A stretch of 64,000 nucleotides of DNA from Candidatus Magasanikbacteria bacterium RIFCSPHIGHO2_01_FULL_33_34 (GCA_001782825.1 MFPS01000007.1:84487-148486); one strand, 5' to 3'. Positions 9,173 to 62,513 are shown, counted from the stretch's first letter. Numbers and translations: made by a program. Notes: generated from the letters alone by a model not told the origin.

Positions 9173-9178
9173 ATATTT

Positions 9179-10180: not shown

Positions 10181-10211
10181 ATTTATTTTACAAATTAATA
10201 TAACGCCTCTT

Positions 10212-25788: not shown

Positions 25789-26802
25789 TTAAAATAATTT
25801 ATCCTTCCACGTACGTGGTGTAATATCAGAAACTATTTCCAAATCCAAATGATACCTAAATGGCTTGACACCACGATCTCTTATATAATTAATCATAGAA
25901 CGAATGCCATCTTGCAAAGATGTTTGTGTTTTATAGCCAAGTAAATTACGAGCTTTTTGAGCACTACAAGTAGCAACTTTAACTTCACAAGGTCTATCAG
26001 CCATATAAATTGGTTCTAAATTAAAATTAAGTTGCTCTGCTATCACTCTGGCAAGCTCATTAATAGTAATCAATTCTTCATCAGGTCCAATATTTACTAT
26101 ATGTCCAACAACTTCATCAGAAGTACCCAATAATTTTAATGGATTAACAACATCTTCAATAAAAGAAAAACATCTCTGTTGTTCACCATCACCATATATA
26201 ACAGGTTGTCTATTTTGCAACATTAAATTGATCATAATAGAAGCTACATTTCTATAAGGATCATCATATTTTTGTCTAGGCCCTATAATATTATGTGGCA
26301 CAGCTATAACATATTCCATATTATGTGTTTCACAAAGATTTCTAACGGTTAGTTCTGATGCAAGCTTGGCTATGCCATATGGATCCTGAGGTTTGGGAAT
26401 CATTTCTTCTCTAAAAGGTAAACTTTCTTGTGTGCCATATCTAGCCATACTAGAACAAAAAACAAAGCGTTTCACTTTATTTGAAATTGCAGATGAAAGT
26501 ACTGATGTCGCAATACCATAAGTATTCTTTGTAATCAGATGAGGAGAAAACACACTCAAACCTTCATAAGCAGTACATGCGCAATGATAGACTATATCAA
26601 CGCCTTCCATGATTTTTACCATAGCTTCCCTATCCCCACAATCATACGAAAAAAACTTAACCCCCGGTGGGACATTATCCAAATAACCTCCAATTAAATT
26701 ATCACAACCGATCACTTTATAACCATCTTTTAGCAATCTATCTGCCAAATGACTTCCTAAAAATCCAGCGACTCCTGTAATAAAAACTGTCTGTTGAATC
26801 AT
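25789..26802 (-). CDS. NAD-dependent nucleotide-sugar epimerase (UDP-glucose / UDP-glucuronate 4-epimerase-like SDR)
   Basis: VFITGVAGFLGSHLADRLL; YxxxK (YGIAKLASE). 337 aa. Confidence 0.7.
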   Translation of the reverse strand: MIQQTVFITGVAGFLGSHLADRLLKDGYKVIGCDNLIGGYLDNVPPGVKFFSYDCGDREAMVKIMEGVDIVYHCACTAYEGLSVFSPHLITKNTYGIATSVLSSAISNKVKRFVFCSSMARYGTQESLPFREEMIPKPQDPYGIAKLASELTVRNLCETHNMEYVIAVPHNIIGPRQKYDDPYRNVASIMINLMLQNRQPVIYGDGEQQRCFSFIEDVVNPLKLLGTSDEVVGHIVNIGPDEELITINELARVIAEQLNFNLEPIYMADRPCEVKVATCSAQKARNLLGYKTQTSLQDGIRSMINYIRDRGVKPFRYHLDLEIVSDITPRTWKDKLF

Positions 26803-28605: not shown

Positions 28606-29593
28606 ATCTTTTTTTCTTTTTTAATCTATAAAAAAAGTAAGCAGAAACACCTACAAAAAATAAAGTTGATAAAAATAATAAAGCTGTTATTTTTTTTAAA
28701 TAAACAATCATAATCATTCTCAACCTTTCATAACTAAACCTAGGAATATTTTCTCTATAAGAAGGTAATCTTTCTTCTATTTTTTTAAAATTTAACCCTG
28801 CTATATCCTCGTGTACTGCAATAGGATTCACAACTATATCATCCTCAGACACAACTACATGCAAAAAATGTTGGGGAAATTTATATTCTCTTTCTGAGAA
28901 ACCTACCCCATAATAATCAATACCATTTTCTTGATAAGCAAAATATGGCTGTCTAGAACCAACATCACCAACAAAAACTCCCAAAGTATTACTGTTTATA
29001 AATGGTACTACTTCAAAATTCCAATTATTTGATTCACTTATTGTCTGTCCCCTATTATTGCACAAATCAACCTCATCTTCATAAAATAAACAATGATGAA
29101 CAAACACTATATTTTGCTTATCTTTTTTAAAATTTTCTTTTAACCATTCAAGTTGAGTACCCAATATATCATAAGTAGCAATTGGCGCAACCACATCAGA
29201 ACTGTTTAAAAATAAAAAATTTATATTTTTTAATTCAAAAGATTGATATAAAGGTCCAATTTTTTCTATAAAATTTTGTCTATCATCAGACCTATCCTCT
29301 ATATCGTGATTACCTGGTACAAAATAAACCGGCATACTAAATTTGTCGGTAATTTCAAGTATTACCTCCCATTCTGTTTGATGATTATTTGGTAAAGTGT
29401 CACCATTAAAAACAACGAAATCCGGCTTAAGCTGATTAACTTTTTCTACACTTTTTTCCAATGCTTCATAATCTGGATATATATGTCCAAATACTACAAA
29501 ACTAACATCTTCTTTTTTATCAATCTGCGCAAAAACAAAATCTGGAACTAATAAAAATGCCAGTAAAAAAATTATTGTATATACTTTATTCAT
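28592..29593 (-). CDS. Calcineurin-like metallophosphoesterase with signal peptide and C-terminal TM anchor
   Basis: VVFGHIYPD...FNGDT...GNHD...VHHCLF metallophosphatase motifs; overlaps the CotH-like gene by 14 nt. Confidence 0.6.
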   Translation of the reverse strand: MNKVYTIIFLLAFLLVPDFVFAQIDKKEDVSFVVFGHIYPDYEALEKSVEKVNQLKPDFVVFNGDTLPNNHQTEWEVILEITDKFSMPVYFVPGNHDIEDRSDDRQNFIEKIGPLYQSFELKNINFLFLNSSDVVAPIATYDILGTQLEWLKENFKKDKQNIVFVHHCLFYEDEVDLCNNRGQTISESNNWNFEVVPFINSNTLGVFVGDVGSRQPYFAYQENGIDYYGVGFSEREYKFPQHFLHVVVSEDDIVVNPIAVHEDIAGLNFKKIEERLPSYRENIPRFSYERLRMIMIVYLKKITALLFLSTLFFVGVSAYFFYRLKKKKRYDNK

Positions 29594-30660
29594 AATAATT
29601 TTTTAATAATCTGTTCAACAGTACTTTCAAGACTATGATTTTTAAACACTGCATCCCTCAAACTATCAGTATTAATTTCTTTGTATTTTGTTATCTTCTC
29701 AACCAAGTCATTTAAATCACCATCTTCAAATAAACAATTTTCAGGAAGAATATTTTTAAAGGTAAAATTGGATGTAATAACAGGTAAACCACTGGCCATT
29801 GCCTCAAGTACCGCTTTGTCTACCCCTCCAGTTCTACTAGCATTCAAAAATAAATCTGCTCGCTTATAATATTCTACAATATTTTCATATGGTACTTTTC
29901 CAACAAATTCTACTAATTCTTCCTCCTGCTCACGTTTTAAGTAACTTTTTAACTCTTCTAAATATTCCCTATCTTCATCCAAATAAGGCTCTCCAACAAT
30001 CAAAAATCTAACTTTTTTATCAAGCTTTTTTTGTAAAATTATAACAGATTTGACTAAAATTAGCAAATTTTTGCTACTAGATACTCGCCCTACTGTAAGC
30101 ATAACAAATTCATCATCTTTCATCCCAAGGCTGACTAGCCTCGGGCTGACTTCTCTACTTTCTATATTTGAAAATATATTCAAATCAATTCCATGCCCAG
30201 TAGCAATTACTTTATGTGATTTTATTGGAAATCCATCAATATGAGCTGTAAAAACATAATTTGTAATTATATGAGATAATTTTAATTTCCAAGTTAGAGA
30301 TTTATGCAAATACCAAATACCCACTTTTTTACCAAACAAACGCGCAACCCAACCACCATAGACAATGTATTCAGGACACATATGTATCAAAACACTTCTT
30401 ACTTTTGGTAAATATTTAAATAACAAACTCCAAAATATAAAAATTCTTTTGAATCTACTTATATCTTCTTCTTTTTTTAGAGAAGATACAACTACATTAT
30501 CCGGTAAATTATATTCACCAACTTTATTTGCAATCACATAAACTTTATCAGCTTGTTTAGAAAATTCTCTAAGCCAACCACAAAAAAATCCAAGATTAGA
30601 ATCTCTTTCATCTACTGTTTGAGTTATAATCAACAAATTTTTATTTTTCATAACATTCAC
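29590..30660 (-). CDS. GT4 (GT-B) glycosyltransferase
   Basis: 356 aa; C-terminal GGVDKAVLEAMASGLPVITSNF. Confidence 0.65.
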   Translation of the reverse strand: MNVMKNKNLLIITQTVDERDSNLGFFCGWLREFSKQADKVYVIANKVGEYNLPDNVVVSSLKKEEDISRFKRIFIFWSLLFKYLPKVRSVLIHMCPEYIVYGGWVARLFGKKVGIWYLHKSLTWKLKLSHIITNYVFTAHIDGFPIKSHKVIATGHGIDLNIFSNIESREVSPRLVSLGMKDDEFVMLTVGRVSSSKNLLILVKSVIILQKKLDKKVRFLIVGEPYLDEDREYLEELKSYLKREQEEELVEFVGKVPYENIVEYYKRADLFLNASRTGGVDKAVLEAMASGLPVITSNFTFKNILPENCLFEDGDLNDLVEKITKYKEINTDSLRDAVFKNHSLESTVEQIIKKLL

Positions 30661-30664
30661 TCTA

Positions 30665-31429
30665 TTATTTATATCTAGCTATTAGTGTATTTGTATCCCT
30701 TGATCCTGGCACTAAATCAGCTAACAATCTAAATATTGCAAGCATAATATTTCTTGGAAATTTATCTTTGCCATTAAATAATGGAGAGGTGCGAGAATTC
30801 TGTGCTTTGATAATCTCTAACCCAGACCACTCTGCCATCTGAGCCAACTCTTTTATAGTATATTCTCGCCAATGACCAACAAAATTATCCCCTTCATCAA
30901 AAAATGGCTTCAAATCACGGCAAGCTGAACGTCCACACATTACACGACATCTATTCAACAAATCTACCATATTAGGCACAATACAAAAAAATAAACCACC
31001 TTGTTTCAAATTACGCAAACAAGAATCAATAAACTTTTTTGGAGATTTTTGATGTTCTAATACAGCTATATTCATCACACAATCATACTTTGTAGTATTT
31101 ACAAAATTAAATATATCTTCATTTAAAATAGACACGTTATTCTTTTGCCATACTTTACTCAAACTTTCTAATCCATTTTCTTTGACTGATAAATAATTAT
31201 TTGGTTGAAAAATATATTTGTCTAATCCAATGACTTTATATCCCAACTTGGATAAAGTAATCATAGATATACCTATACCACATCCAACATCCAAAACAGT
31301 AGATCCAACCGGAACATACTTTACAAAAAATTCTAAATTTTTTAAATTATTCCTAAATTCCCATCTCTGCCTATCACTATAAGGTGAAAGTTCATTGTAA
31401 GAATACTCCAAAGCTTCTTTTATATTCAT
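30665..31429 (-). CDS. Class I SAM-dependent methyltransferase
   Basis: VLDVGCGIGISM (motif I), LKQGGLFFCIVPN (motif II-like). 254 aa. Confidence 0.6.
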   Translation of the reverse strand: MNIKEALEYSYNELSPYSDRQRWEFRNNLKNLEFFVKYVPVGSTVLDVGCGIGISMITLSKLGYKVIGLDKYIFQPNNYLSVKENGLESLSKVWQKNNVSILNEDIFNFVNTTKYDCVMNIAVLEHQKSPKKFIDSCLRNLKQGGLFFCIVPNMVDLLNRCRVMCGRSACRDLKPFFDEGDNFVGHWREYTIKELAQMAEWSGLEIIKAQNSRTSPLFNGKDKFPRNIMLAIFRLLADLVPGSRDTNTLIARYK

Positions 31430-31436
31430 ATATATA

Positions 31437-33272
31437 TTAAAAAAATTTCTTATACCAAATTTGAAAAGTAATTAATGCCCACAATAAATTCATATTATAT
31501 GCTTTCTTATTAATATGATTATCTAACATTTTTCTTATTTCATCAAAATTAAAATATTCTTTTGTTTCTGGTATATAATTCTCAGACAAAACTTCATACG
31601 CCAATTCTTTCATATCAGTCCGCAACCATTCTGAAACTGGTGAGAACCACCCTCTTTTTGGTTGATTTAAAATATAATCTGGAATATATTTACTCATCGC
31701 TTCTTTAAAAATTGCTTTCGTATTTTTTCCTTTGATCTTCCATTTTGTTGGAATTTTCAAAGATAATTCTACCAAACGATGATCAAGTATTGGTACCCGT
31801 TGCTCAAGTCCGTAGGCCATAGACATTTTGTCACTACGAATTAAAGATTCGTCTACTAGCCATGAACGAATATCTGCCCACATAAATTGCTTTTCAAAAT
31901 CTTCAATTTTATTATTAAAATAATTTTCTCTATATATTTTCTCTACACTCAAATAATTACTATATTTATTTTTTAAAAATAAAGAAATATCTTTCTCTTC
32001 TTGGGCCATAAACGATAAATATCTTTTCTCGTCTGCAGGTAAATTTAATTTTGCTAAAGACTTATTTTTATGCTTGAATAAATTAATAAAAAGATTTCCA
32101 AATGACACTCTCAAAAAGCTAGGAATTTTTTGGTAATTACTTATCAATTTACTCATACGATAACGTTCATAACCACCAAACAATTCATCCCCACCGTCTC
32201 CTCCCAAAACTACTACCACCTCTTGACTAGTCCTCTTAGATAAAATATAAGTAGCAATTTGCGTAGCATTAGCGACTGGCTCATCCATATGTTCAATCAC
32301 ATCAAACAAATTATCTCGTGCGTCAGAGCCTGTAATTTCTATTTCTGTATGGTCTGTTTTATAATATTCACTTGTCCTTTTTGCCAAATCTGCATCTATA
32401 TTGAATTTATTGACCTTCACATCATAATTGGCTGAAAAAGTTTTTACTTTGCTCTTTGTGATTTCACTTACAAGTCCTGTTATAACAGTAGAATCAATTC
32501 CACCACTTAAAAATACCCCAACCGGTCTATCTGAAATTAATTGTAATCGTACAGAATCTTTCATCAAATTTCTTATTTGCGATATTGCTTCTTTCTTGTC
32601 TTCAATATTTGCAAAGTCCTTTGGCTCCCAATATTTTTCTTTAGTTAATTTATTATCCTTGTAAACTAAATATGAACCTGATTCTAATTTATTTATTCCG
32701 TCAAACATTGTTAATGGCGCTGGCACATAAAGAGTCCTAAAATATATGTTTAGTGCATCAGTATTTATTTTCCTCTCTATACCATGCTCCAAAATACTTT
32801 TAATTTCTGAAGAAAAAATAAATTTATCATTATCATAATAATAATATAATGGTTTTACACCTACTCTATCTCTAGCCAAAAATATACTTTTATCACTCTT
32901 GTCAAAAATTGCAAATGAGAAAATTCCATTAAATTTTTGCAAACATTCAACTCCATACTCCTTGTATGAATTTATAATAACTTCTGAATCACTATCTGAC
33001 AAAAATTTGTAACCCTTACTCTTCAAATCCTTCCGTATATCTTGAAAATTATAAATTTCTCCATTAAATACCAAAACCAATGAATCATCTGTACTAAACA
33101 TAGGCTGACTAGCTTTGTCTGACAAATCAATAATCGCTAGTCTAGTATGTCCCAAAGAAATATTATCACACACAAATATGCCATCACCATCAGGGCCACG
33201 GTGCTTTATTTTGTTATTCATTTTTCTTATTAATTCTTCACTGGAAAAATTGAAACCATTTATTCCACACAT
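31437..33272 (-). CDS. asnB: Asparagine synthetase B-type glutamine-dependent amidotransferase (probably a sugar-uronate amidase such as WbpS rather than a housekeeping AsnB)
   Basis: N-terminal MCGINGF (Ntn nucleophile Cys2); PP-loop SGGIDS; 611 aa; embedded in the glycan locus. Confidence 0.8.
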   Translation of the reverse strand: MCGINGFNFSSEELIRKMNNKIKHRGPDGDGIFVCDNISLGHTRLAIIDLSDKASQPMFSTDDSLVLVFNGEIYNFQDIRKDLKSKGYKFLSDSDSEVIINSYKEYGVECLQKFNGIFSFAIFDKSDKSIFLARDRVGVKPLYYYYDNDKFIFSSEIKSILEHGIERKINTDALNIYFRTLYVPAPLTMFDGINKLESGSYLVYKDNKLTKEKYWEPKDFANIEDKKEAISQIRNLMKDSVRLQLISDRPVGVFLSGGIDSTVITGLVSEITKSKVKTFSANYDVKVNKFNIDADLAKRTSEYYKTDHTEIEITGSDARDNLFDVIEHMDEPVANATQIATYILSKRTSQEVVVVLGGDGGDELFGGYERYRMSKLISNYQKIPSFLRVSFGNLFINLFKHKNKSLAKLNLPADEKRYLSFMAQEEKDISLFLKNKYSNYLSVEKIYRENYFNNKIEDFEKQFMWADIRSWLVDESLIRSDKMSMAYGLEQRVPILDHRLVELSLKIPTKWKIKGKNTKAIFKEAMSKYIPDYILNQPKRGWFSPVSEWLRTDMKELAYEVLSENYIPETKEYFNFDEIRKMLDNHINKKAYNMNLLWALITFQIWYKKFF

Positions 33273-33319
33273 AAAAATAGTTCTTAGCTATTAGTCCATA
33301 GCCAATAGTTCAATTGATT

Positions 33320-33673
33320 TTAAACATATAATTTCTCACGATATTTATATAACATTTTTAAAATTTCCAATAAAAGATTATCAGCTTTAGTAAATAATTT
33401 TATTCCTGCAAAATTTAATTTTTTTGCTATGACAATTTGAGTTTCAAGTTCAGTTGCAGAACCAAAGGAAATGTTAACAAACTGCGCATTTTCTTTTTTA
33501 CTCTTTCTTGCATACCCTTCGGCAATATTGGATGGTATTGAAATTGCACACCTTCTCATCTGTGAAATAATACCAAATTTTTCTTCCACTGGAAACAAAT
33601 TTGTTAATTTATAAATTTCTACCACTAATTCAATAGATTTCTGCCAAACAATCAAATCTTTATAAGTATTCAT
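33320..33673 (-). CDS. Four-helix-bundle protein (TIGR02436-like; the family often encoded in 23S rRNA intervening sequences)
   Basis: MNTYKDLIVWQKSIELVVEIYKLTNLFPVEEKFGIISQMRRCAISIPSNIAEGYAR. 117 aa. Confidence 0.65.
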   Translation of the reverse strand: MNTYKDLIVWQKSIELVVEIYKLTNLFPVEEKFGIISQMRRCAISIPSNIAEGYARKSKKENAQFVNISFGSATELETQIVIAKKLNFAGIKLFTKADNLLLEILKMLYKYREKLYV

Positions 33674-33683: not shown

Positions 33684-33725
33684 ACTGGCTACTGGCTATT
33701 GGCTATTGGCTATTGACTAATGGCT
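33684..33725. repeat. Heptanucleotide tandem repeat (ACTGGCT/ATTGGCT/ATTGACT, 6 units) overlapping the gmd stop codon and lying 11 nt upstream of the four-helix-bundle gene
   Basis: actggct actggct attggct attggct attgact aatggct. Inverted copies (CCAATAG / GCTATTAG) occur at 33277-33298 on the other side of the four-helix gene. Confidence 0.6.
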
Positions 33726-34687
33726 TCCAAATCTGCTTCTACCATCAATTTAACTAATTCCTTAAACTTTACTTTTGGTTCCCAACCAAGTTTTTCTTTG
33801 GCTTTTGAATAATCACCTACCAATAAATCTACTTCGGCCGGACGCAAGAATCTCTCATCAAACTCTACATAATCTTCCCAATTCAAATTAACAAAACCAA
33901 AAGCCTCTTCCAAAAATTCTCTAACTGTATGTGTCTCACCTGTAGCTATAACATAATCATCCGGTTCATCTTGTTGGAGCATCAACCACATTGCCTCTAC
34001 ATATTCTTTTGCATAACCCCAATCCCGTTTAGAATCTAAATTTCCTAATATAATCTTATTACTTAATCCATTTTTAATTTCTGCCACCCCTTTGGTGATT
34101 TTTTTAGTGACAAAATTCTCTCCTCTTCTAGGAGATTCATGATTAAATAAGATTCCACTACAAGCAAACATCCCATAACTTTCACGATAATTTATTGTCT
34201 GGTGATGCGCAAATACTTTTGCACATGCATAAGGACTCCTAGGATGAAAACAAGTTTTTTCATTCTGCGGAGTTTCAGATACCTTCCCATACATTTCACT
34301 ACTTGAAGCTTGATAAAACTTTGTTTTTATTCCACTATCTTTAATTGCCTCTAACAATCTTATAACACCCACACCTGTAATATCTGCAGTATACGCTGGT
34401 ATATCAAAACTAATTCTAACATGACTTTGAGCTGCTAGATTATATATTTCATCTGGCTGTATATTATACAAAAGCTTAGAAATATTTGTCCCATCAGACA
34501 AATCACCATAATACAAAAATAATTTTTTATCTTTATATTTTTCAAATAAATGCTCAATTCTAGAACGAAATAATATACTATTTCTTCTTACAATTCCATG
34601 AACTTCATAACCTTTCTCAAGTAATAACTCCGTCAGATATGAGCCATCTTGCCCTGTAATCCCAGTAATAAATGCTTTTTTTATCAT
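33710..34687 (-). CDS. gmd: GDP-mannose 4,6-dehydratase
   Basis: [35 protein letters not shown] is the signature Gmd N-terminus. The track start at 34723 is an extension; Met13 chosen. Confidence 0.85.
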
Positions 34688-34747
34688 AAATAATAAATTT
34701 ACTTGATTATATTGATTAAACAATGTCTATATTAAAATAAATATATT

Positions 34748-35950
34748 TTAACTATTTAATTTATTAAAAAAATCTTTAAATATAGAAATTGTATATTCTC
34801 GTTCTTCTTGACTTATTTTTTCATGACAACCAATATAAAAACCATTGTTATTAATCCACTTGGAAACTGGATATTCATTTTCTATTTCTCCAAAATCTTT
34901 AATAACAACCGGTTGATTTATCAAAGGGAGCATATCGCGAGTCTCAATATTATTTTCCTCCAAAAACATAACCAAATCTTTTTTTATTATTTTTTCATCT
35001 TTTATAACTATCGGAAACATCATATAGGCATGTTCTCTATTAGGTTGGATATGTGGTAATTGGATAAAATTTTCAAATTCAGATAATTGTGAAATATAAT
35101 ATTGAGCGCACTCAAACCGTCCATCAATAATTTTGTCATGCTCCTCAAACTGCGCTAAAGCCAAAGCGCCTTCCATCTCTGTAACCCGAGCGCTATAACC
35201 AGGTCTCACAAAAGAAAAACGTCGCAAAACAACATTCTGTAACTCCTCTTTTGACAAACCCTTGTCATCATCAATAGATATATAGATTGAATCTCTTCCA
35301 TGATTCATCAGACTTCTTAAAATAACGGCATATTCTTTATTGTTAGTAAGAGCTAAACCACCAACACCAGAAGTAAGCAAATGTGCCATATAAGTTGAAA
35401 AACAACTAATATCACCAAAAGATCCAACTTTTTTTTCTTTATAGGAAACAAACATTGTTTCACATGAATCTTCAATTATTTTTAAATTGTATTTAGCACT
35501 AATTTCTAAAATTGGATCCATATCTGCTGGCTGACCAAACAAATGTACTACCATAATAGCTTTTGTATTTGAGCTTATCTTTTTTTCAATTTGTTTTGGA
35601 TCAATATTGTACGAATTACTTTCTACATCCACAAAAACTGGCTTCAAACCTTGGTCAACTATTACATTATAATCAGAAATAAAAGTAGTTGCTGGTAAAA
35701 TTATCTCCGCTCCTTGAGACCAATTATGCGCTTCTTTTAAACAAGCTATAGACAAACGCAAAGCATCAGTCCCACTATTCATCATAACCCCATATTTTGC
35801 ACCGTGATATTCCGAGAATTTTTTCTCAAATTCCTGAAGATATTTGCCATAAGACAATCTACCAGAATCTAGTACATCATTTACATATTTTTTGGCATTT
35901 TCTGAAATATTAGCTGTACCAACACCAACTTGTTTTTTTGCTTTATCCAT
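34748..35950 (-). CDS. DegT-family PLP/PMP enzyme with His in place of the conserved Lys (GDP-4-keto-6-deoxymannose 3-dehydratase ColD-like, or an E1-like sugar 3-dehydratase)
   Basis: 400 aa; NSGTDALRLSI; FSTYMAHLLTSGVGG aligns to SFHPVKNITTGEGG of the PseC-like gene with K replaced by H. Adjacent to gmd. Confidence 0.5.
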   Translation of the reverse strand: MDKAKKQVGVGTANISENAKKYVNDVLDSGRLSYGKYLQEFEKKFSEYHGAKYGVMMNSGTDALRLSIACLKEAHNWSQGAEIILPATTFISDYNVIVDQGLKPVFVDVESNSYNIDPKQIEKKISSNTKAIMVVHLFGQPADMDPILEISAKYNLKIIEDSCETMFVSYKEKKVGSFGDISCFSTYMAHLLTSGVGGLALTNNKEYAVILRSLMNHGRDSIYISIDDDKGLSKEELQNVVLRRFSFVRPGYSARVTEMEGALALAQFEEHDKIIDGRFECAQYYISQLSEFENFIQLPHIQPNREHAYMMFPIVIKDEKIIKKDLVMFLEENNIETRDMLPLINQPVVIKDFGEIENEYPVSKWINNNGFYIGCHEKISQEEREYTISIFKDFFNKLNS

Positions 35951-36066
35951 AAAAAATATTATTTTTTACCTAAATATTCCAACCTCTATTTTCTTTATTA
36001 TTACTATAGTTTAGCACATTTTTCTTGCCTGTCAATCTTTCAATAATCATAAAAAATACCTAAAAA

Positions 36067-37272
36067 TCATTTCAATGCCTCTAAAACCAGACTATCATAT
36101 TTTTCATTAGAAAATAGATCTTTACTTTTTTCTACAGCTTTTAAAGAAATTTCTTTTCTAAAATTTATATCCAATAATTTTCCTAAAGCCAAGACAAATT
36201 CCTCTTTGCTTTTGGCACACAAAATATCCTGTCCACATTCAAAAGAATAGCCTGCCAAACCTCTTTCTGAAACTATTGTAGGGAAACCACGCACAATTGG
36301 TTCAAAAATTTTTTGTTGCATACCAGCACCAGAAAGAGACGGTATCAAAGCAATATCCATACCATCCAAAAATTTATTCAAATCATCAACAAAACCTACA
36401 TAACTTATAGAGCTAATCTCATTACATTGGTTTTTAAGATATTCAGGCAACTTTCCACCAGTAATAAAAAATTTAAATTTACCTGGATATTTCTTATTAG
36501 CTAATGGTGCAACTTCCTCTATCACAAATTTTACTGCCTGAAGATTGTGCTTTACATTATAAGTACTGCCCATAAAAAAGACATTCAACACTTTTTTATC
36601 CTGTATATTATTATTTTTACCTATAAAATTTGATAATGCTCTGAGTGGTAGGGTTTTAATTTTTTTAGCGCCTAATTTTTTATACAAAATATTTTCATCT
36701 GGAGTGATTGCAAAAAAATAATCACTTTTTTTAATACTTACAAATTCAGTAAGTGTTTTTATCTTTGATTTTAAAATATTAACAAAACTATAACCCTCCT
36801 CTTCCAAAAGATTATTTGGATCATATATAAGTGAATGAGTAATGATCTTGCAACCATAACGACGAGCGATTGGATACAAAGGCAACATAAAAGTATAGTC
36901 AAACCAAACTATTTCTGGCTTCCAACTATTTAAAATTTCTTCCATTTTTCTCTTTATTATCAAATCATCATATTCATATACAGAACCATCCCAAAATGGT
37001 GGCCATAAAATTCTTTTTAATAAATATTTTAACTTTTCAAAATATTTCATTTTTTGATTATAACGATATGGAACCAAATGAATAGGAATATTATATTCCT
37101 TTGAAAAATTCAATATATCTTCCTTACTTTGAAAATCAAAAATCTTCCCAATAACTTGGACATCATAACCTAACCTTTTCAACTGTTTTATTCCTTCCAT
37201 TCTGTCTTGCTCACATGCTCCTGAAGTAGGTATAGGAAAACGTGGTGTGATTAATAAAATTTTCTTACTCAT
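36067..37272 (-). CDS. GT-B fold glycosyltransferase (GT4/GT1-like)
   Basis: 401 aa; C-terminal ...IALIPSLSGAGMQQKIFEPIVRGFPTIVSERG. Confidence 0.45.
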   Translation of the reverse strand: MSKKILLITPRFPIPTSGACEQDRMEGIKQLKRLGYDVQVIGKIFDFQSKEDILNFSKEYNIPIHLVPYRYNQKMKYFEKLKYLLKRILWPPFWDGSVYEYDDLIIKRKMEEILNSWKPEIVWFDYTFMLPLYPIARRYGCKIITHSLIYDPNNLLEEEGYSFVNILKSKIKTLTEFVSIKKSDYFFAITPDENILYKKLGAKKIKTLPLRALSNFIGKNNNIQDKKVLNVFFMGSTYNVKHNLQAVKFVIEEVAPLANKKYPGKFKFFITGGKLPEYLKNQCNEISSISYVGFVDDLNKFLDGMDIALIPSLSGAGMQQKIFEPIVRGFPTIVSERGLAGYSFECGQDILCAKSKEEFVLALGKLLDINFRKEISLKAVEKSKDLFSNEKYDSLVLEALK

Positions 37273-37303
37273 ACAATCAAAACTATATTTAATATTATAT
37301 TAT

Positions 37304-38212
37304 TTATATATCCCAATAATTATATATATCTTCAATCATTTTTTCATAATTTATCAAAGGACTCCAATCAATTAACTTTTTTAATTGTCCATTATCACCA
37401 TATATGTCTATGACATCATCTTGACGAACAAATTCAGGATTAACTCTTATGTCAATATCCTTTAACCCAGAGAATTTTTTCCCATATTGAATGACATCAT
37501 TTAGACTTATTGACTTGCCTCTGCACACATTAACTACAACACCAAACTTATCTTGCTCCAAAAGCATTACATAAGCCCTAACCACATCTCGCACATCCAA
37601 TATATCACGCTTGATATTTATATCTCCAATCTCTAAAAATTCTCTCTTTCCATTCTTGATATCAACTATTTGACTAATAATTTTAGGAATTACAAAAGCG
37701 TCATTTTGCGCAGGTCCAGTATGATTAAAACTCCTAACCACAATAGTATTAATTTTATTTGAAAAACTCTTGACTAATGTTTCTTGCTTTATTCTTGACT
37801 GCGCATATGCGCTTTCGCCATTCAAAGGATGATTTTCTCTTACTGGTAAATTATTTGGTTTACCATATACATGGCTAGAACTCACAATTAAAACTTTTGT
37901 ATCTCTTAGAGAAGATAATACCTCCAATAAATTTCTTGTGCCCTCTACATTGACATCATAAGTTCTTTCTGGATTAACTGATGCCAAACTCTGAGAACTT
38001 ACACCAGCTAAATGAAAAACATAATTAGGTTTAATTGATTCAATAGTAGTACGAAGCAAATCCTTATCAGTGATATCAACACAATAATAATTTTTATTTT
38101 TTAAATTTTCATAGCCAATCCCAAAAACATTATAACCACCATCTTCAAGTTCACGCTTCAAGTATGGACCAACAAATCCCCTACTACCGGTTATCAATGC
38201 TATTTTACTCAT
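37304..38212 (-). CDS. NDP-sugar 4-ketoreductase/epimerase of the extended SDR family (Rmd/ColC/Fcl-like)
   Basis: IALITGSRGFVGPYLKRELEDGGYNVFGI (GFVG-type Rossmann motif as in GDP-6-deoxy-4-keto-mannose reductases); YxxxK (YAQSRIKQE). Internal Met chosen over the track start at 38275. Confidence 0.55.
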   Translation of the reverse strand: MSKIALITGSRGFVGPYLKRELEDGGYNVFGIGYENLKNKNYYCVDITDKDLLRTTIESIKPNYVFHLAGVSSQSLASVNPERTYDVNVEGTRNLLEVLSSLRDTKVLIVSSSHVYGKPNNLPVRENHPLNGESAYAQSRIKQETLVKSFSNKINTIVVRSFNHTGPAQNDAFVIPKIISQIVDIKNGKREFLEIGDINIKRDILDVRDVVRAYVMLLEQDKFGVVVNVCRGKSISLNDVIQYGKKFSGLKDIDIRVNPEFVRQDDVIDIYGDNGQLKKLIDWSPLINYEKMIEDIYNYWDI

Positions 38213-39203
38213 ATTTTTTAATTTCATTAATAAATCTTTCTTTATAATCAATTGGTAATATAATAACATTTTCACTTGGCTTCAATTCATAGTTAGCTAC
38301 ACCAACATCTGACATAATCACTTTTTTACCAGCCATATTTGCCTCCATTGGCACCATACCATAACCTTCACTTAAACTTGGAAACAAAACAACATCACAA
38401 GTCTTTATATAACTTATATGATCATCTGTCCAATCTTCAAATTTGATATTATTTTCTAGACCTAACATTTTTACTTTTTCGATCAAAATATTTTTCTGCG
38501 AACCACTACCAACCACAAGTAATAAATAATCTTTTTTTTCTTTAATTACTTCTGCAAAAATATCAATTAAAAAATCAATATTCTTGACAAGCTCAAGCCT
38601 ACCAATACTTAAAAATATTTTATTATAAGCAGAATATTTTTTCTTCAAGTCTGTCTTGATTTGATATGATTCAATATATTCTTTATTCACTTCTATTGCT
38701 CTCAATTCTATTTTGTCTTCATTCACTCCCAATTCTAATAAATTATTCTTTATTCTTTCCCCTACTACTCTTATTTTATCTGCATTATACAAAACTATAT
38801 ATTTTGCCAAAAAATATTGTATAAAATTTTTAAAACCACTTTTTTTATAATAACTATTACCAAAAAAATCTCCGTGCAATTGAATCTCCAAATTAATTTT
38901 TGTCTTTTTCTTTAAAATCAAACCTAATAAACCAGTAAAAAATGGATCTTGTGTTGTTATCAAGTCAATAACATATTTTTTAATGATAATCTCGCCTTTC
39001 TTTTTTAATTTTATAAATTGTTTAATTTTATTACCACCAATTCCCCAAACTTTAACCTCTGGAGACAATTCTACAAACTTATCTATAGTATTTGGTACAA
39101 TAATATACAATCTATCATATACACCATAATCAACCATGCGTTTCGCCACCATAGAGTTACTGTCCAATATTTTATTGTCTAAACTTATCATTAATTTTGG
39201 CAT
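38205..39203 (-). CDS. GT4 (GT-B) glycosyltransferase
   Basis: 332 aa; C-terminal VVLFPSLSEGYGMVPMEANMAGKKVIMSDVG. Confidence 0.6.
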   Translation of the reverse strand: MPKLMISLDNKILDSNSMVAKRMVDYGVYDRLYIIVPNTIDKFVELSPEVKVWGIGGNKIKQFIKLKKKGEIIIKKYVIDLITTQDPFFTGLLGLILKKKTKINLEIQLHGDFFGNSYYKKSGFKNFIQYFLAKYIVLYNADKIRVVGERIKNNLLELGVNEDKIELRAIEVNKEYIESYQIKTDLKKKYSAYNKIFLSIGRLELVKNIDFLIDIFAEVIKEKKDYLLLVVGSGSQKNILIEKVKMLGLENNIKFEDWTDDHISYIKTCDVVLFPSLSEGYGMVPMEANMAGKKVIMSDVGVANYELKPSENVIILPIDYKERFINEIKKYE

Positions 39204-40330
39204 ATTTTTTTTAATATAGAACTTGTACTATCAACCATTGATTTTAAGGAAAATTTTTCAAAAAATATATCCTTTTCTTGATCTGACCATTCTAAATTCA
39301 TTTCTCCATTTAACAAATTCAGAATTTTATTTTTTATATCTTCCTTATTGTTCAACTCAAACAAATCGCCATTTTTACCAGGAATAACTAATTCTGAATT
39401 TCCGCCTGCTCTGCTTGCCAAAACCGGCGTATTAACATGCAATGCTTCTAATATCAAATGCGACAAACCTTCATAGCCACTATTTAGCACAAAACAATCA
39501 GCCTTATTTATTTTACACATCAATTCTTTGCGACTTAATTGTCCAGGAATTTCAACCACGCCTTCCAATTTTAATTCTATAACTTTATTTTTCAAAAACT
39601 TCAAATCTGGACCATTTCCATATATCTTTAATTTTGCATTTTTTTGTTCTTTCAATATTTCTGGCATAATTTCAATCAATTCCAACATCCCTTTCCAAGG
39701 TACAAGCCTACCAGCAGAAATAATCCATTTTTCCTCTTCTGCTTTTTCAACCGGACACACCCCAACATAACTAGATGAATTATAAACTACAACTACAGAA
39801 TTTTCAGATACACCCCAACCTACTACAATATTTTTCAAATAAAAACTAGGAACTATAACTATGCTACTATTTTTAACAACTATTTTTTGAATCCATTTTA
39901 ATAATCTGACCATAAAAGAATAATTATTTTTTGTCTGAAAAATATCTATAGAATCTTTTACACCAAACCTCTGCACACCTTGTTCCCAAGCATAATCTCC
40001 TACAACTTTTACAACTAACTTTTTGCCAGTCAATTTAGATGCGATCATGGCTGGAAAACCAGCATTGACCGGTCCCATAGCATAAATTACATCGCTCTTT
40101 ATTGCATTTTTAATCAAAAGAAAAATATATTCAAAATATTTTAAAAATTTATTTTTATTTTTTACAATATCTATTTTACAAATAACAACTTTTTTATCTG
40201 AATCTGGATTTAATGAAACAATTTTAACATTCTCACCTTTTTTAGTAAGTTCATTCGCAATTGTAACGCTATATGTAGCCGGACCACCAAATTGTGGTGG
40301 AAATATATCGGCAGCGATCAATATATTCAT
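39191..40330 (-). CDS. GT4 (GT-B) glycosyltransferase
   Basis: 379 aa; NSGYEGLSHLILEALHVNTPVLASRAGGNSELV. Confidence 0.65.
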   Translation of the reverse strand: MNILIAADIFPPQFGGPATYSVTIANELTKKGENVKIVSLNPDSDKKVVICKIDIVKNKNKFLKYFEYIFLLIKNAIKSDVIYAMGPVNAGFPAMIASKLTGKKLVVKVVGDYAWEQGVQRFGVKDSIDIFQTKNNYSFMVRLLKWIQKIVVKNSSIVIVPSFYLKNIVVGWGVSENSVVVVYNSSSYVGVCPVEKAEEEKWIISAGRLVPWKGMLELIEIMPEILKEQKNAKLKIYGNGPDLKFLKNKVIELKLEGVVEIPGQLSRKELMCKINKADCFVLNSGYEGLSHLILEALHVNTPVLASRAGGNSELVIPGKNGDLFELNNKEDIKNKILNLLNGEMNLEWSDQEKDIFFEKFSLKSMVDSTSSILKKICQN

Positions 40331-40336
40331 AAATAA

Positions 40337-41449
40337 TCAAATTAAATCTTTAAAAATATTATTCATATTTTTTGCAATCAAATCCCAATTATACTTTTCT
40401 ATTACCATCTTATGTGCATTAATCTTGACTTTTTCTACCTCTTCTTTATTCTTTTCATCAATTATATATTTAATTTTTTCTGCAATACTCTTAGGATTAA
40501 ACACTTCACAAAACCATCCTGTTTCTCCTTCTACAAGAAAATCTGGTATACCACCGACTTTTGTACCAATCGTCGGCAACCCACTTGCCATTGCTTCTAA
40601 AAATGCATTACCCAACCCTTCAGACAAGCTAGGTCTACAAAATATATCTGCCTTTGATAAATAGTTACTAACTTCTTTTTGATTAATACTACCAACAAAA
40701 TATACCCTCTCTCTTAAATTATTTTCTTTTACTACATTTTCAAGATGATCTCTCAATTCCCCATCACCTAAAATAGTCAAATGCACATTATTATCTAAAT
40801 AACTCATTGATTTAATCAAATCTTCTATTCCATTTTTTTTGACCAATCGTGAAACTGTAATAACTTCTATATGATTAGAAAATTTTTTGTACTGACTATT
40901 ACTTTCATCAGTAAAATTAACTAAGTCAACTCCATTGGGTATTATATCTACCTTAACCTTTGACCCCATATCACAAGCCCAATCTCCAAGGTATTTACTA
41001 ATTGCTTGTATCCTATCAGCCATCTTAAATATCTGTTTAAAATATGGCCAAATAAACCAAACTCTTTTATAAATATGATATTTACTATCACCTTCTTGTA
41101 ATGTCAGTAAAAAAGGTACTTTTTTATTTTGTTTTTTATAACGTAAACCGGCAAATCCACCAAAACTAGCCATGATTGACCATACAATATCAAATTTACC
41201 CAAAGATTTTGCGTATTTTGGCCCGGAAAAAATCAGACGAAACTTGTCCCAGTTATTCCCCTTGCCAATCCGGTGGATATATAAATTATGTAATTTCTCC
41301 TCTCTTGGTAATTTTTTATCTAACTTTGATGCAATCATAACAAATTCACAATCTTCAATCCTGTCAGTGATTTCTTTTACCGCAATTTCCGCTCCACCAA
41401 TCAACGGAAAATAAGCAGTTGAAAAAATTAAAATTCTTTTTTTACCCAT
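40337..41449 (-). CDS. GT4 (GT-B) glycosyltransferase
   Basis: 370 aa; RPSLSEGLGNAFLEAMASGLPTIGTKVGGIPDFL. Confidence 0.7.
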   Translation of the reverse strand: MGKKRILIFSTAYFPLIGGAEIAVKEITDRIEDCEFVMIASKLDKKLPREEKLHNLYIHRIGKGNNWDKFRLIFSGPKYAKSLGKFDIVWSIMASFGGFAGLRYKKQNKKVPFLLTLQEGDSKYHIYKRVWFIWPYFKQIFKMADRIQAISKYLGDWACDMGSKVKVDIIPNGVDLVNFTDESNSQYKKFSNHIEVITVSRLVKKNGIEDLIKSMSYLDNNVHLTILGDGELRDHLENVVKENNLRERVYFVGSINQKEVSNYLSKADIFCRPSLSEGLGNAFLEAMASGLPTIGTKVGGIPDFLVEGETGWFCEVFNPKSIAEKIKYIIDEKNKEEVEKVKINAHKMVIEKYNWDLIAKNMNNIFKDLI

Positions 41450-41487: not shown

Positions 41488-42432
41488 TTATATTTTAAGC
41501 CTGATTTTAAAATTTTCTATAGTTTTTATCAGACCCTCTTCTAATTCAATTTTTGGTTCCCAATCTAATACCTTCTTAGCAAGTGATATGTCTGGTTGGC
41601 GTTGCATCGGATCATCCTCACGAAATTCACCATTAAATATTAACTGACTTTTACTATTTGTTAATTCAATAACTTTTTTGGCTAATTCTTTTATAGTAAA
41701 TTCATTTGGATTACCTAAATTGACCGGACCTGTAAAATCAATATCCGAATTCATCATCTTAGTAATACTATCAACAAGATCATCAACATAACAAAAACTA
41801 CGAGTCTGTGAACCATCACCATCAATTAATAAATTTTCATCTTTCAAGGCATTTAAAATGAAGTTAGATATAACACGACCATCCTCAAAAGCCATACGTG
41901 GACCATATGTATTGAAAATCCGGATTACCTTTATTTCCATTCCATGCATACGACGATAATCAAAACAAAGTGTTTCAGAAACTCTCTTCCCCTCGTCATA
42001 ACAAGCTCTCGGACCAATTGTATTTACATTGCCTCGATAACTTTCCACTTGAGGGTGAACATCAGGATCACCATAAACTTCCGAAGTTGATGCTTGTAAA
42101 AATCTAGCATTGTGTCTACGAGCCAGTCCAAGCATATTTATTACGCCGATTGTATTGGCTTTGATTGTCCTAACCGGATTTTCTTGATAATGAATCGGGC
42201 TAGCCGGACAAGCTAAATTATATACCTGATCAATTTTTTCATCCAAAAATAAAGGCTCAATAATATCATGTTCAATAAACTTAAAATTTTGATTACTTTC
42301 TAAATGTCTTATATTGTCATATGAACCAGTAAAAAGATTATCAACACAAAAAATTCTATTATTATCAGCAAGTAATTTTTCGCATAAATGAGAACCAATA
42401 AAACCGGCCCCACCTGTAATTAAAATATTCAT
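41488..42432 (-). CDS. uxs: UDP-glucuronate decarboxylase (UDP-xylose synthase)
   Basis: MNILITGGAGFIGSHLCEKLLADNNRIFCVDNLFTGSYDNIRHL...YDEGKR. 314 aa; classic UXS/ArnA-decarboxylase-type signature. Confidence 0.8.
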   Translation of the reverse strand: MNILITGGAGFIGSHLCEKLLADNNRIFCVDNLFTGSYDNIRHLESNQNFKFIEHDIIEPLFLDEKIDQVYNLACPASPIHYQENPVRTIKANTIGVINMLGLARRHNARFLQASTSEVYGDPDVHPQVESYRGNVNTIGPRACYDEGKRVSETLCFDYRRMHGMEIKVIRIFNTYGPRMAFEDGRVISNFILNALKDENLLIDGDGSQTRSFCYVDDLVDSITKMMNSDIDFTGPVNLGNPNEFTIKELAKKVIELTNSKSQLIFNGEFREDDPMQRQPDISLAKKVLDWEPKIELEEGLIKTIENFKIRLKI

Positions 42433-59815: not shown

Positions 59816-59953
59816 ATTAAAAGTTGCATCATTTTAGAAAATAAAAAAAGACGTCGCGAGGCTGGGAGCCAAGCGACGTCGTAGGGGATCTCTGAAGACC
59901 CCGTTAGGATCACCTTCGGTGAGGGTTACTCACCTTGGGTGAATCACACTGCG

Positions 59954-60943
59954 TCATGGGTAGACGCAAGTGTTTGTGCCCACGTCGCAGTATGGCGACG
60001 GTGGACACGAATCTCCACACGGCAAGGCCGTGTAAAGGGTGCAGTGCCAGTCTTCATAGCACTGCACGCAGGTGCCATCCAGGCACTTGCGTTTGTCCGA
60101 CGGACAGTCGGAGTGCCCACTGCACTCCGGTTCCGGCTTGTCGCAGGTGCACTCACCGGCGACGCAGGAGTAGCCGTCGTCGCAGACGACCAGTTCGTGC
60201 TGGCAACCTAGAGTTGCGTCGCACGAATCGGTCGTACAGCTGTCACCGTCGTCGCACCCACCCAATGGGGGGGCAACTTGGTCACACAAACATGTGTCCG
60301 GGTTTTGTGCCCAGACACCGTTGCACGCGTCCTCGTCATCACAGACGAGGGGCGCGCAGCTCGGCGGAGCGTCACACTCCGGAACACCGGCATCCGGTGT
60401 CCCAAGGGGACATGTCGGACACGTCGGTTCCGGAGTGCATCCACTGGAAGTCGAGCAAAACTCTCCTTCGTTGCAGATTGTGCTGTCGGGGACCTGGAAA
60501 CACCCAGTACCCTCGACACACACGCCGACGGTGCAGACGAACGGGTCGTTGCAAGCGGGCGGTTCGCCCGGACGACATTCGCCGTCCAGACAGCGCTCCG
60601 CGCCGTTGCAGAACAACCCGTCGTTGCAGTCCAGATCCATTTCACAGGTCTCCGGACAACCGACACACGTGGGCGGACCCACGCACTCGTTGCGACTCTC
60701 GTCGCAGGTCATGCCGTTTTGACACAGGTCACCGGTGTGGGCACATTCGCCCACTCCGATACAGTACTCCACGCCATTACAGAACAACCCGTCCTGCGGA
60801 CAATCGCAAGCGTTACCGCCTGCATCATCCGCCGAACCAGCGTCAAGGGTAGAATTGCCGTTTGGCAACTCCACCCCGAAGTGGTCACGGCCCTCACCGC
60901 AAGCGGCGAGAGCCAAGAAAGCAAGAATGAGGATTCTCATCAT
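59954..60943 (-). CDS. Cysteine-rich secreted lipoprotein (about 16% Cys) with repeated DGLFCNG.E.C / CDDGDSC-type modules
   Basis: Signal peptide plus lipobox (LALAAC-G); repeats DGLFCNGVEYC, DGLFCNGAERC, CDDEDACNG, CDDGDSCTTDSCD. 329 aa; high GC3. Confidence 0.5.
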   Translation of the reverse strand: MMRILILAFLALAACGEGRDHFGVELPNGNSTLDAGSADDAGGNACDCPQDGLFCNGVEYCIGVGECAHTGDLCQNGMTCDESRNECVGPPTCVGCPETCEMDLDCNDGLFCNGAERCLDGECRPGEPPACNDPFVCTVGVCVEGTGCFQVPDSTICNEGEFCSTSSGCTPEPTCPTCPLGTPDAGVPECDAPPSCAPLVCDDEDACNGVWAQNPDTCLCDQVAPPLGGCDDGDSCTTDSCDATLGCQHELVVCDDGYSCVAGECTCDKPEPECSGHSDCPSDKRKCLDGTCVQCYEDWHCTLYTALPCGDSCPPSPYCDVGTNTCVYP

Positions 60944-60964
60944 TTTCTTTTCTTTCTGCCACCC

Positions 60965-61423
60965 TTAGCGGGTGGCATAGCAGATGATACCGGTGACGAG
61001 AGCCGACGCGCCTGCTCCGGCCGCCGCGAACTTCCACGTGGCGTCGAACCAGACGTCGACGCGAGAGGCCGAAACCTCCACGTCGTTGGGGTAGCGGATG
61101 CTGCCGTAGGCAGCACCTCCTGCTGTTCCGGCGAGACCGCCGAGAGCCATTGCTCCCAGACAGCCCCGCTTCTGCGCAGGTACCTTGACCGTGGTCGTGT
61201 CCGTGATGGGCACGACCAATTCGACGTCACAGTCCCCGTCAGACGGGCACTGCACCTGGCGGTCAAAGACCGCTTCGCCGTTGGCGGTCACTCCGTCGCT
61301 GGTGTCAAGCATCGTGCTCGAGACCACCGGCCTGGCGGTGTGCACCGCACAACCGCTGAGGATGTTGACCACAAGGGCCAACGCGAGGCCGAAAACGGCC
61401 AGAAACAAAAGATCCTTCTTCAT
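60965..61423 (-). CDS. Small lipoprotein (Gly/Ala-rich C-terminus)
   Basis: MKKDLLFLAVFGLALALVVNILSGC lipobox; SD AGGAGAGAG 5 nt upstream of ATG. 152 aa. Confidence 0.45.
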   Translation of the reverse strand: MKKDLLFLAVFGLALALVVNILSGCAVHTARPVVSSTMLDTSDGVTANGEAVFDRQVQCPSDGDCDVELVVPITDTTTVKVPAQKRGCLGAMALGGLAGTAGGAAYGSIRYPNDVEVSASRVDVWFDATWKFAAAGAGASALVTGIICYATR

Positions 61424-61547
61424 GTCTCTCTCCTGTTTCCCGACATCTTATCGGGATAGTTTCTGTTTGGTTGAAAGGTTGAAAAGAAAGGTCACCCTGC
61501 CTGGTGGTTAAACTGGGCAAAATGACCAGCGATGTGGCTGATGAAGA

Positions 61548-62513
61548 CTATCTCTCCACCGCCACGGTCTTGGTCCTGGGGACCACGACCCGCACGTTTA
61601 CGGGCTTGTCAGCCCGCTTGCGCAGATCGTCAACCCCGACCGAGAGGTTGCCATACTTCGCCTCCAGGCTCAGTAGATAACCCCTCGTCTCTTCGGACCG
61701 CTTTTTGTCGGCCTCTTCATGGCTCCGAAGCCGACGATCATGCTCATCGAGCTTCTTGTTGACCCTGTTGATGGCGCGACCGTTCTTCTCGCTCTGCACG
61801 AGGCCCTTTTCGGTCAAGCCGAACAGCATGTTCAGCATGCCGTTCTGTGGCTTGCTCAGGTGGCAACACTCACTCGGAGTCTTACCACTCTTGACACACT
61901 CATCAAGCAACTTCTCGTAGGCAAGAACCTCCGCCGGGTCAGTCACGACCCAGCCTTGGAACTTCTTCAGGAGACGGTAGGTCTCCGTATCGGTTCCACC
62001 GACCAAACGGCGAGTCTCCTCGCCGTCGATCCTCATCGTCGAGACGATGGGGCCGTCGACGCCAAGCAGAGCCCTGGTGACATCACCATCCTTGGTGACC
62101 GCCGAAGCGATCTTGTCGACGCTATCATCGTCATTGAACTGCTGATACAACAGCAGTCCAATGACGACAGCGATCCCCGCCAAGATGGCGACGAACCACC
62201 ACACCGAACGCTGAGGCGTCGGCGAAGGTGCCGGAGGGGGCAGAGTCTTGGCGACCCCGCCATTGATGTGTGGCGGAAGACCGCCACCACCACCGTGCTG
62301 TTCCATGCTCATATTCTGTTCTTTCTGGCGCTCACGACGCCTCTTCTGGTACTCCGTCTCCGTGACGCCGGGAAGCGCCGAATTGGGCTTGGTGTCCTGA
62401 TTGTCAGCGACGACCGAAGGGACACTCTCCTTTTCCGGGAGAACATCCTTTCCTCCATCTCGAGTTTGAATCTCCCCAGCCGCTTCGAGCTCACGTCGTT
62501 CATTTGCGGTCAT
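61548..62513 (-). CDS. Single-pass membrane protein with a Pro/Gly-rich cytoplasmic N-terminus and a charged C-terminal domain
   Basis: Start MTANERRELEAAGE preceded by SD AAGGAGAGG; TM VWWFVAILAGIAVVIGLLLY; GC3-rich codons on the minus strand. Confidence 0.45.
   Translation of the reverse strand: MTANERRELEAAGEIQTRDGGKDVLPEKESVPSVVADNQDTKPNSALPGVTETEYQKRRRERQKEQNMSMEQHGGGGGLPPHINGGVAKTLPPPAPSPTPQRSVWWFVAILAGIAVVIGLLLYQQFNDDDSVDKIASAVTKDGDVTRALLGVDGPIVSTMRIDGEETRRLVGGTDTETYRLLKKFQGWVVTDPAEVLAYEKLLDECVKSGKTPSECCHLSKPQNGMLNMLFGLTEKGLVQSEKNGRAINRVNKKLDEHDRRLRSHEEADKKRSEETRGYLLSLEAKYGNLSVGVDDLRKRADKPVNVRVVVPRTKTVAVER

Follow-up and report, generated by a model that had tools for sequence, protein, structure and literature searches.

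A His-type DegT-family enzyme encoded between gmd and an Rmd-like reductase gene points to a probable branched GDP-deoxyhexose module in a Magasanikbacteria polysaccharide locus

Which sugar is made by a locus that places a GDP-mannose 4,6-dehydratase gene next to that of a DegT-family enzyme with a histidine in place of its active-site lysine? The question is raised by a 64-kb stretch of DNA, hereafter the window, from Candidatus Magasanikbacteria bacterium RIFCSPHIGHO2_01_FULL_33_34 (MFPS01000007.1:84487-148486), a bacterium of the candidate phyla radiation (CPR). The segment at positions 33710-38212 of the window provides the sugar-nucleotide core of a locus for cell-surface polysaccharide, and it carries gmd, the gene for the DegT-family protein, a glycosyltransferase gene and the gene for a short-chain dehydrogenase/reductase (SDR). 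A first-pass annotation of this DNA had read gmd, the DegT gene and the SDR gene as a pathway to a colitose-like GDP-3,6-dideoxyhexose. Our analysis instead favours, with a rough probability of 0.55, a branched GDP-deoxyhexose module in which Gmd works with an Rmd-type reductase and with a ColD-like dehydratase belonging to a new lineage; the module would probably supply D-rhamnose, and possibly also a 3,6-dideoxy sugar of D configuration, for the cell surface.

The first enzyme of the module is readily recognised. Gmd (33710-34687, minus strand; 325 aa from ATG, the mechanical open reading frame (ORF) reaching a TTG at 34723) scored 518 bits with TIGR01472 (cut-off 415) and 467 bits with PF16363, shares 53% identity with the E. 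coli enzyme, and has the Ser/Glu/Tyr/Lys catalytic set intact (SSSEMYG and YACAK). Having passed the equivalog cut-off with its catalytic set kept, it is indeed the textbook Gmd that it had been called, and as a first step, well supported by sequence, it would convert GDP-mannose to GDP-4-keto-6-deoxy-D-mannose. As a side observation, one Gmd that adjoins an Rmd-like gene in another locus is interrupted by a LAGLIDADG-containing intein (L092 2872-5004).

The neighbouring gene (34748-35950, minus strand) encodes the DegT-family protein (400 aa; PF01041, 305 bits), whose predicted active-site lysine was said to be replaced by histidine. HMMER pairwise alignments to solved structures placed His190 (FSTYMAH; CAT codon at 35381-35383, minus strand, within FSTYMAHLLTSGVGG) opposite His188 of ColD, His220 of E1 and Lys186 of Per, and a MAFFT alignment of 33 sequences yielded the same column; the Schiff-base position itself is marked by mutant chains in the PDB, namely E1 H220K (3bb8) and ColD H188K/H188N (2r0t, 3b8x). 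The substitution was thereby confirmed in both kinds of alignment, which put a histidine and not a lysine at the Schiff-base position. All 120 closest homologues (55-88% identity) likewise have His in this column; in the 121 sequences aligned (homologues plus query) it follows an Ala 115 times and a Cys 6 times. An identical DegT protein was found on at least 24 contigs, and His190 is therefore neither a sequencing error nor a chance event. The sole invariant lysine in a 22-sequence alignment of the family is Lys72. An exhaustive HMMER search was run over 1.84 billion cluster representatives at 50% identity and the best 150 were taken, of which 149 align over the motif; 131 of these 149 have His, and Lys forms occur only at 35% identity or below. 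Two cluster representatives within the His-type group, P0283 and P0298, have Cys or Gln at the catalytic position instead of His.

The exchange of the catalytic lysine for histidine is the main feature separating 3-dehydratases from aminotransferases (PMC8987622), and the protein was compared with known enzymes of both kinds. It is 29% identical to ColD, 31% to E1 and 34% to Per; its best match by sequence among solved structures is E1 (3bcx, 8.3e-54, full-length), and no NCBIfam model captures it, the best being RfbH at 241 bits, below the cut-off of 423. In neighbour-joining (NJ) trees built with our own code and limited outgroups, the larger of them with the motif columns deleted, one bipartition with 70% bootstrap divided all 105 His-type sequences, including the query, ColD, E1 and a second enzyme from the left edge of the window, from all 18 Lys-type sequences; in a smaller tree the query family had 100% support, the ColD plus E1 group 95% and the union of His-type enzymes 69%. 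Characterised ColDs share 62-67% identity with one another (PMC10440746), and because the DegT protein reaches just 29% and its family has a clade of its own, the family appears to be a separate lineage within the His-type group and not a ColD orthologue.

Gene context adds to this picture. A scan in which each GTDB species was represented by one genome gave 449 loci with a relative of the DegT protein, and context counts were taken from the best 80. A gmd gene lies within 2.5 kb of the gene for the His-type DegT protein (DegT-His) in at least 46 of these 80 species loci, a lower bound as many contigs are cut, and this neighbourhood supports a ColD-like GDP-4-keto-6-deoxymannose 3-dehydratase. 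In an alignment to E1 the DegT protein has no equivalents of Cys251, Cys253 and Cys261, which together with Cys193 we take to be the [2Fe-2S] ligands of E1, and no ferredoxin-reductase-type (E3-like, Fer2/FAD-reductase) domain was matched in the window ORFs scanned. Lacking the Fe-S cysteines of E1, the protein is best read mechanistically as following a ColD-type route. Thus, of the earlier designation as a ColD-like GDP-4-keto-6-deoxymannose 3-dehydratase, the activity agrees with the His signature, the Gmd context and the missing Fe-S site, while ColD orthology has to be given up.

A GDP-perosamine synthase, that is, an aminotransferase of the Per type (C. crescentus, 3bn1), would fit the adjacency of Gmd equally well, as its presumed substrate is the same Gmd product, and several homologues of the DegT protein have been named 'perosamine synthetase' by JGI. 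Several further observations count against a dehydratase. The protein is about as similar to the Lys-type Per (34%) as to ColD and E1 (29-31%); the AlphaFold2 model (mean predicted local distance difference test score, pLDDT, 89.7; template modelling (TM) scores of 0.85-0.88 to E1, ColD and Per in a Foldseek comparison with the PDB) has Per as its best match (TM 0.86, root-mean-square deviation 1.9), and its active-site loop 188-196 lies at pLDDT below 50; Ser187 of ColD is Ala (Ala189); and the grouping of all His-type enzymes carries only 69-70% NJ bootstrap. The fold comparison, however, does not discriminate dehydratase from aminotransferase, no homologue among the 120 has a Schiff-base lysine, the single invariant Lys72 lies elsewhere, Per has Asn-Lys where the DegT protein has Ala-His, and the family groups, at the moderate support just given, with ColD and E1, away from the Lys-type side of the tree on which Per falls; with the Lys-to-His exchange being the main hallmark of 3-dehydratases (PMC8987622), an aminotransferase is scarcely credible here. 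On the strength of its His-type nearest relatives, the tree topology and the gene context, we place the DegT protein among the 3-dehydratases, which is probably what it is.

The comparison with the two known 3-dehydratases can be made more specific. With ColD/WbdK (E. coli O55, Y. pseudotuberculosis, C. jejuni HS:5; PDB 2gms) the DegT protein shares the DegT fold, the His at the Schiff-base position, the lack of a [2Fe-2S] site, an ED-x-CE motif, linkage to Gmd and, in many of its relatives, a neighbouring Fcl/ColC-like gene; it differs from ColD in having Ala-His for Ser-His and the invariant lineage motif CFSTYxAH…GVGG for SFYSHH…MEGG, besides the low identity and separate clade, and it has no ColC partner in the window. 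In ColD, the double exchange S187N/H188K (structure 3gr9) is reported to shift the enzyme towards an aminotransferase. With E1 (RfbH/AscC, CDP-6-deoxy-L-threo-D-glycero-4-hexulose 3-dehydrase, 3bcx) it has in common Ala-His and a GRD motif after the active-site loop, whereas the three cysteines and any match to an E3 domain are missing and its partner is Gmd, not CDP-glucose dehydratase.

If the DegT protein makes a 3-deoxy ketone, which enzyme reduces it? Upstream of the DegT gene, and separated from it by a single GT4 gene, lies the GFVG-type SDR that had been noted there (37304-38212, minus strand; 302 aa from MSK, or 307 aa from an alternative ATG at 38227). The first half of its description as Rmd/ColC-like is well founded, its nearest solved relatives being the Rmd structures 2pk3 (8.5e-47, 36.5% identity) and 6x3b (1.8e-33, 31% identity). 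The second half is not: the GDP-fucose synthase model NF047922 gave 43.5 bits against a cut-off of 500, and the epimerase positions of Fcl, Cys109 and His179, are His and Phe. The Glu that serves dehydration in Gmd is replaced in the SDR by His (SSSHVYG). Because its relatives are Rmd enzymes and it has neither the Gmd Glu nor the Fcl Cys/His pair, we predict a plain, non-epimerising Rmd-type C4 reductase. It resembles Rmd, the GDP-6-deoxy-D-lyxo-4-hexulose reductase of A. thermoaerophilus (2pk3) and P. aeruginosa (6x3b), in length, in the absence of epimerase residues and in adjoining Gmd in its relatives, and departs from it in the His just mentioned and in an Arg for the lysine of YxxxK. 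This Arg is found in 111 of 120 SDR homologues and Lys in 9 of 120, and the subfamily spans CPR, DPANN and Lokiarchaeum; we know of no characterised sugar SDR with the YxxxR variant.

These properties bear directly on colitose. A route from Gmd through ColD and a ColC-like SDR to GDP-L-colitose has in its favour that the His variant and Gmd are both real, and that 21 of the 80 related loci pair DegT-His with an intact Fcl/ColC-like gene. Against it stand the SDR itself, with its low score on the Fcl model, altered epimerase positions and Rmd relatives, and the rest of the window: no Fcl/ColC homologue was found among the ORFs of the 64 kb (best other ORF, 66 bits), and no RmlC-type epimerase or cupin among the window ORFs scanned, one being located just beyond the left edge. 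As neither enzyme was found, the L-xylo sugar colitose is not predicted from the window, GDP-L-colitose is a very unlikely product, and the practical consequence is that a colitose pathway annotation is unwarranted here.

For the family at large the situation differs. In the 21 loci with a nearby Fcl-like gene, Cys109 is kept in 23 of 23 such genes and His179 in 22 of 23, and loci of Gmd, DegT-His and an Fcl-like enzyme would represent the classical Gmd-ColD-ColC colitose triad. Because these loci pair DegT-His with a Fcl/ColC-like gene whose epimerase residues are intact, the family as a whole probably serves colitose synthesis in many organisms. A literature search on colitose in Patescibacteria found nothing relevant. 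In L054 (7060-10833), the gene of DegT-His is flanked by two Fcl-like genes, both with Cys109/His179, whose products share 37% and 49% identity with E. coli Fcl; this would fit a true Fcl beside ColC.

The history of the reductase was traced through related loci. L088, whose SDR is 72% identical to that of the window, has the order UXS-GT-GT-GT-SDR-Gmd-IVP-AsnB (GT, glycosyltransferase; IVP, 23S rRNA intervening sequence protein) and no DegT gene, and the SDR also lies directly beside Gmd in L089, L090, L091 and L092. As these relatives pair the SDR with Gmd and have no DegT, its ancestral role would be that of a Gmd+Rmd pair making GDP-D-rhamnose or GDP-6-deoxy-D-talose. L007, with a DegT-His 78% identical to ours, contains the same glycosyltransferases, GT401, a different SDR of 294 aa, DegT-His, Gmd and AsnB. 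GT401 is the GT4-type glycosyltransferase encoded between the reductase and DegT genes (36067-37272, minus strand; 401 aa; PF13692, 55 bits); its orthologue in L007 is 68% identical and stands upstream of the 294-aa SDR and DegT-His, and copies at 47-48% identity occur elsewhere in L088 and L090. The window, with its Rmd-like SDR, GT401, DegT-His and Gmd, is a mosaic of the L088-type and L007-type arrangements. The possibility that the 116-bp gap at 35951-36066 keeps a vestige of the L007-type SDR was rejected, because this gap is too short and consists of AT-rich spacer only.

The reductase adds its own points to those already counted against the scheme. Its Ser and Tyr are present and its catalytic Lys is replaced by Arg140 (YAQSR; window 37793-37795); all five sampled SDR orthologues (L088-L092) adjoin Gmd without a DegT gene, which makes the link between the SDR and the 3-dehydratase weak; and L007, the closest syntenic relative with DegT-His, has another SDR, 26% identical. 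The alternative suggested by such findings is that the locus has two separate outputs, Gmd and the SDR making GDP-D-rhamnose or GDP-6-deoxy-D-talose only, and the product of the 3-dehydratase being finished by an enzyme encoded elsewhere: the SDR at 25789-26802, the one at 2151-3086, or the off-edge RmlC-like epimerase together with an SDR, which would lead to an L-sugar. The pairing of all five sampled SDR orthologues with Gmd and without DegT, the fact that the distinct SDR of the L007 DegT-His is missing from the window, and the RmlC-like gene just outside the window all speak for it. The other SDRs, however, are 8-32 kb off in other cassettes, the RmlC-like gene is tied to a fused RmlB-type enzyme, and in the window block, as in L007, a single non-Gmd SDR lies near DegT-His, which fits local replacement of the reductase; we consider two separate outputs unlikely, though far from negligible.

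A single module in which the SDR also takes the 3-deoxy ketone is somewhat supported, because the SDR is the sole non-Gmd SDR near DegT-His in the block, because DegT-His is paired with an Rmd-like enzyme also in the DPANN loci L051 (likewise YxxxR) and L056, and because GDP-sugar C4 reductases are known to take the 3,6-dideoxy-4-keto sugar formed by a ColD-type enzyme, giving D-arabino and D-lyxo products (PMC10440746). For this particular genome, such use of the SDR is a guess.

How would the module operate? The Gmd product would be taken up by DegT-His, whose action we deduce from its active-site signature and gene context: a pyridoxamine 5'-phosphate (PMP)-dependent enzyme which, without the lysine, would form no internal aldimine. 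His190 would take the C4' proton of the PMP-sugar ketimine, with expulsion of the 3-OH, and with no [2Fe-2S] site present the enamine would be released hydrolytically in the manner of ColD, glutamate restoring PMP; hydrolytic enamine release and glutamate-dependent PMP regeneration have been described for ColD (PMC8987622, PMC10440746). The product of this step would be GDP-4-keto-3,6-dideoxy-D-mannose. In the third step, which is in part conjectural, the SDR would reduce the Gmd product directly to GDP-D-rhamnose or GDP-6-deoxy-D-talose and, if it accepts the 3-deoxy ketone, would give a GDP-linked D-3,6-dideoxyhexose of the D-arabino (tyvelose) or D-lyxo configuration, not L-colitose; flanking GT4 enzymes would finally transfer the resulting sugars. 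Tyvelose is made via CDP-sugars, and no natural occurrence of the D-lyxo isomer is known to us. That CPR bacteria and DPANN archaea combine an uncharacterised ColD-like His-type lineage with non-epimerising Rmd-type reductases, here of the YxxxR form, to make GDP-tyvelose or GDP-3,6-dideoxy-D-lyxo-hexose is a tentative and somewhat doubtful extension of the scheme.

The closest biochemical precedent is the GDP-3,6-dideoxyheptose pathway of C. jejuni HS:5/HS:11, which follows the same logic of a 4,6-dehydratase, a PLP/PMP (pyridoxal/pyridoxamine 5'-phosphate) C3-dehydratase and a C4 reductase, and in which 3,6-dideoxy products of both D-arabino and D-lyxo configuration were obtained in vitro when the reductases were exchanged (PMC10440746). 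That pathway differs from ours in acting on a heptose, in having a true ColD orthologue and in employing a distinct C5 epimerase that the window lacks. The kind of pathway is already known; what is new here is a His-type lineage that is uncharacterised and widely misannotated, and the way it is paired with non-epimerising reductases. One dehydratase module appears to be joined to varied reductases, Fcl-like, Rmd-like and others, and could so diversify surface sugars.

The lineage is by no means confined to this genome. The best 80 loci are mainly from CPR and DPANN, with some from Gammaproteobacteria, Acidobacteriota and others, so that a dideoxysugar dehydratase, which had seemed unexpected in a CPR-like organism, turns out to belong to a lineage found mostly in CPR and DPANN genomes. 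A tblastn search of plasmids and phages turned up no DegT-His family member at more than about 36% identity, nor any annotation that was informative. Domain fusions occur among P0244, P0248, P0255, P0257, P0258 and P0266, four of which carry an N-terminal SDR fused to DegT-His and the others glycosyltransferase or methyltransferase domains. In P0241, P0245 and P0246 the C terminus is prolonged by some 230 aa that match no Pfam family, and the family member P0262 has an intein/HINT insertion near residue 150.

If the dehydratase assignment is right, many genes that at present carry the label 'DegT family aminotransferase' or 'perosamine synthetase' encode sugar 3-dehydratases, and at least 449 GTDB species have one. 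Sugars of the 3,6-dideoxyhexose class, well known as immunodominant components of the O antigens of enteric pathogens, would in that case be widespread on the surfaces of the ultra-small CPR bacteria and DPANN archaea, whose envelopes have hardly been studied. The lineage would also provide a third sequence-distinct template for the Lys-to-His switch from aminotransferase to dehydratase, with an E1-like Ala-His and no Fe-S cluster, and its mix-and-match reductase partners would be a possible source of new GDP-deoxysugars for glyco-engineering.

Does the window encode a second dideoxy sugar? The 3-dehydratase fusion noted at its left edge is there (1-2144, minus strand): a His-type DegT domain (SFYASH, His codon at 1578-1580) joined to an NDP-hexose 4,6-dehydratase of the RmlB-like kind, the window edge truncating the gene. 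The complete gene encodes 775 aa (L093 9943-12270). The closest solved relative of its DegT part is E1 (1.2e-75), without the Fe-S cysteines. Outside the window the fused gene is followed by one for an RmlC-like cupin (L093 12280-12840), and before it lies the SDR at 2151-3086 (minus strand; profile and sequence comparison), already mentioned, which is a candidate reductase of this second route. The whole looks like a self-contained 3,6-dideoxy-L-hexose cassette. Because an RmlC-like epimerase is present, it could give an L-sugar, and the gmd cassette D-sugars; the proposal that the locus makes two different dideoxy sugars is therefore plausible as far as a second His-type enzyme with its own cassette goes, with D-sugars in place of colitose as the product of the gmd cassette. 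A DegT protein similar to the left-edge one (SFYGSH) occurs in L008.

The surroundings of the core are uniform in orientation: between 29.6 and 42.4 kb every gene is on the minus strand and gaps are short, with the 5' to 3' order UXS-like SDR, three GT4 enzymes, the extended SDR, GT401, DegT, gmd, IVP, AsnB, methyltransferase and GT4. The block is headed by a UDP-glucuronate decarboxylase/UXS-like SDR (41488-42432, minus strand; profile matches and synteny), followed by the genes of three GT4 glycosyltransferases of 332, 379 and 370 aa (38205-41449, minus strand, the same direction and upstream of the SDR; Pfam matches; syntenic in L007, L088 and L090). Downstream of gmd come the genes for a four-helix-bundle (IVP) protein, an AsnB-type amidotransferase, a methyltransferase and a GT4 enzyme (29590-33673, minus strand; profile matches and synteny). 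The four-helix-bundle '23S rRNA intervening sequence' protein (33320-33673, minus strand; PF05635, 130 bits) is encoded between gmd and asnB, the same spot as in L088, though the two are just 41% identical. The genes of the 33-43 kb block look co-transcribed; a promoter and terminator scan of these 33-43 kb found nothing beyond shuffled expectation. The remaining window also encodes polysaccharide machinery: a flippase, a Wzy_C-type protein, PMT-like proteins and many glycosyltransferases.

A pseudaminic-acid-type cassette at 4281-10240 (minus strand) passed NCBIfam cut-offs for PseB (9179-10240), PseC (8045-9172), a HisH/HisF-like pair (6638-8048), the WbuX amidotransferase (5382-6611) and PseI (4281-5363), which suggests that this CPR bacterium may make an acetamidino-modified nonulosonic acid. 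The DegT gene at 8045-9172 was considered as a source of an enzyme aminating the product of the gmd cassette and was rejected, being a PseC equivalog (476 bits, cut-off 423.5) within the pseudaminic-acid cassette. Finally, an island at 59900-62500 has about 60% G+C in a genome of about 30% G+C, with no Rfam match, and could represent foreign DNA or a chimeric assembly; the protein of its ORF at 59954-60943 (minus strand) is rich in cysteine and has a lipoprotein-like signal peptide, MMRILILAFLALAAC, and a weak Dicty_CTDC match only.

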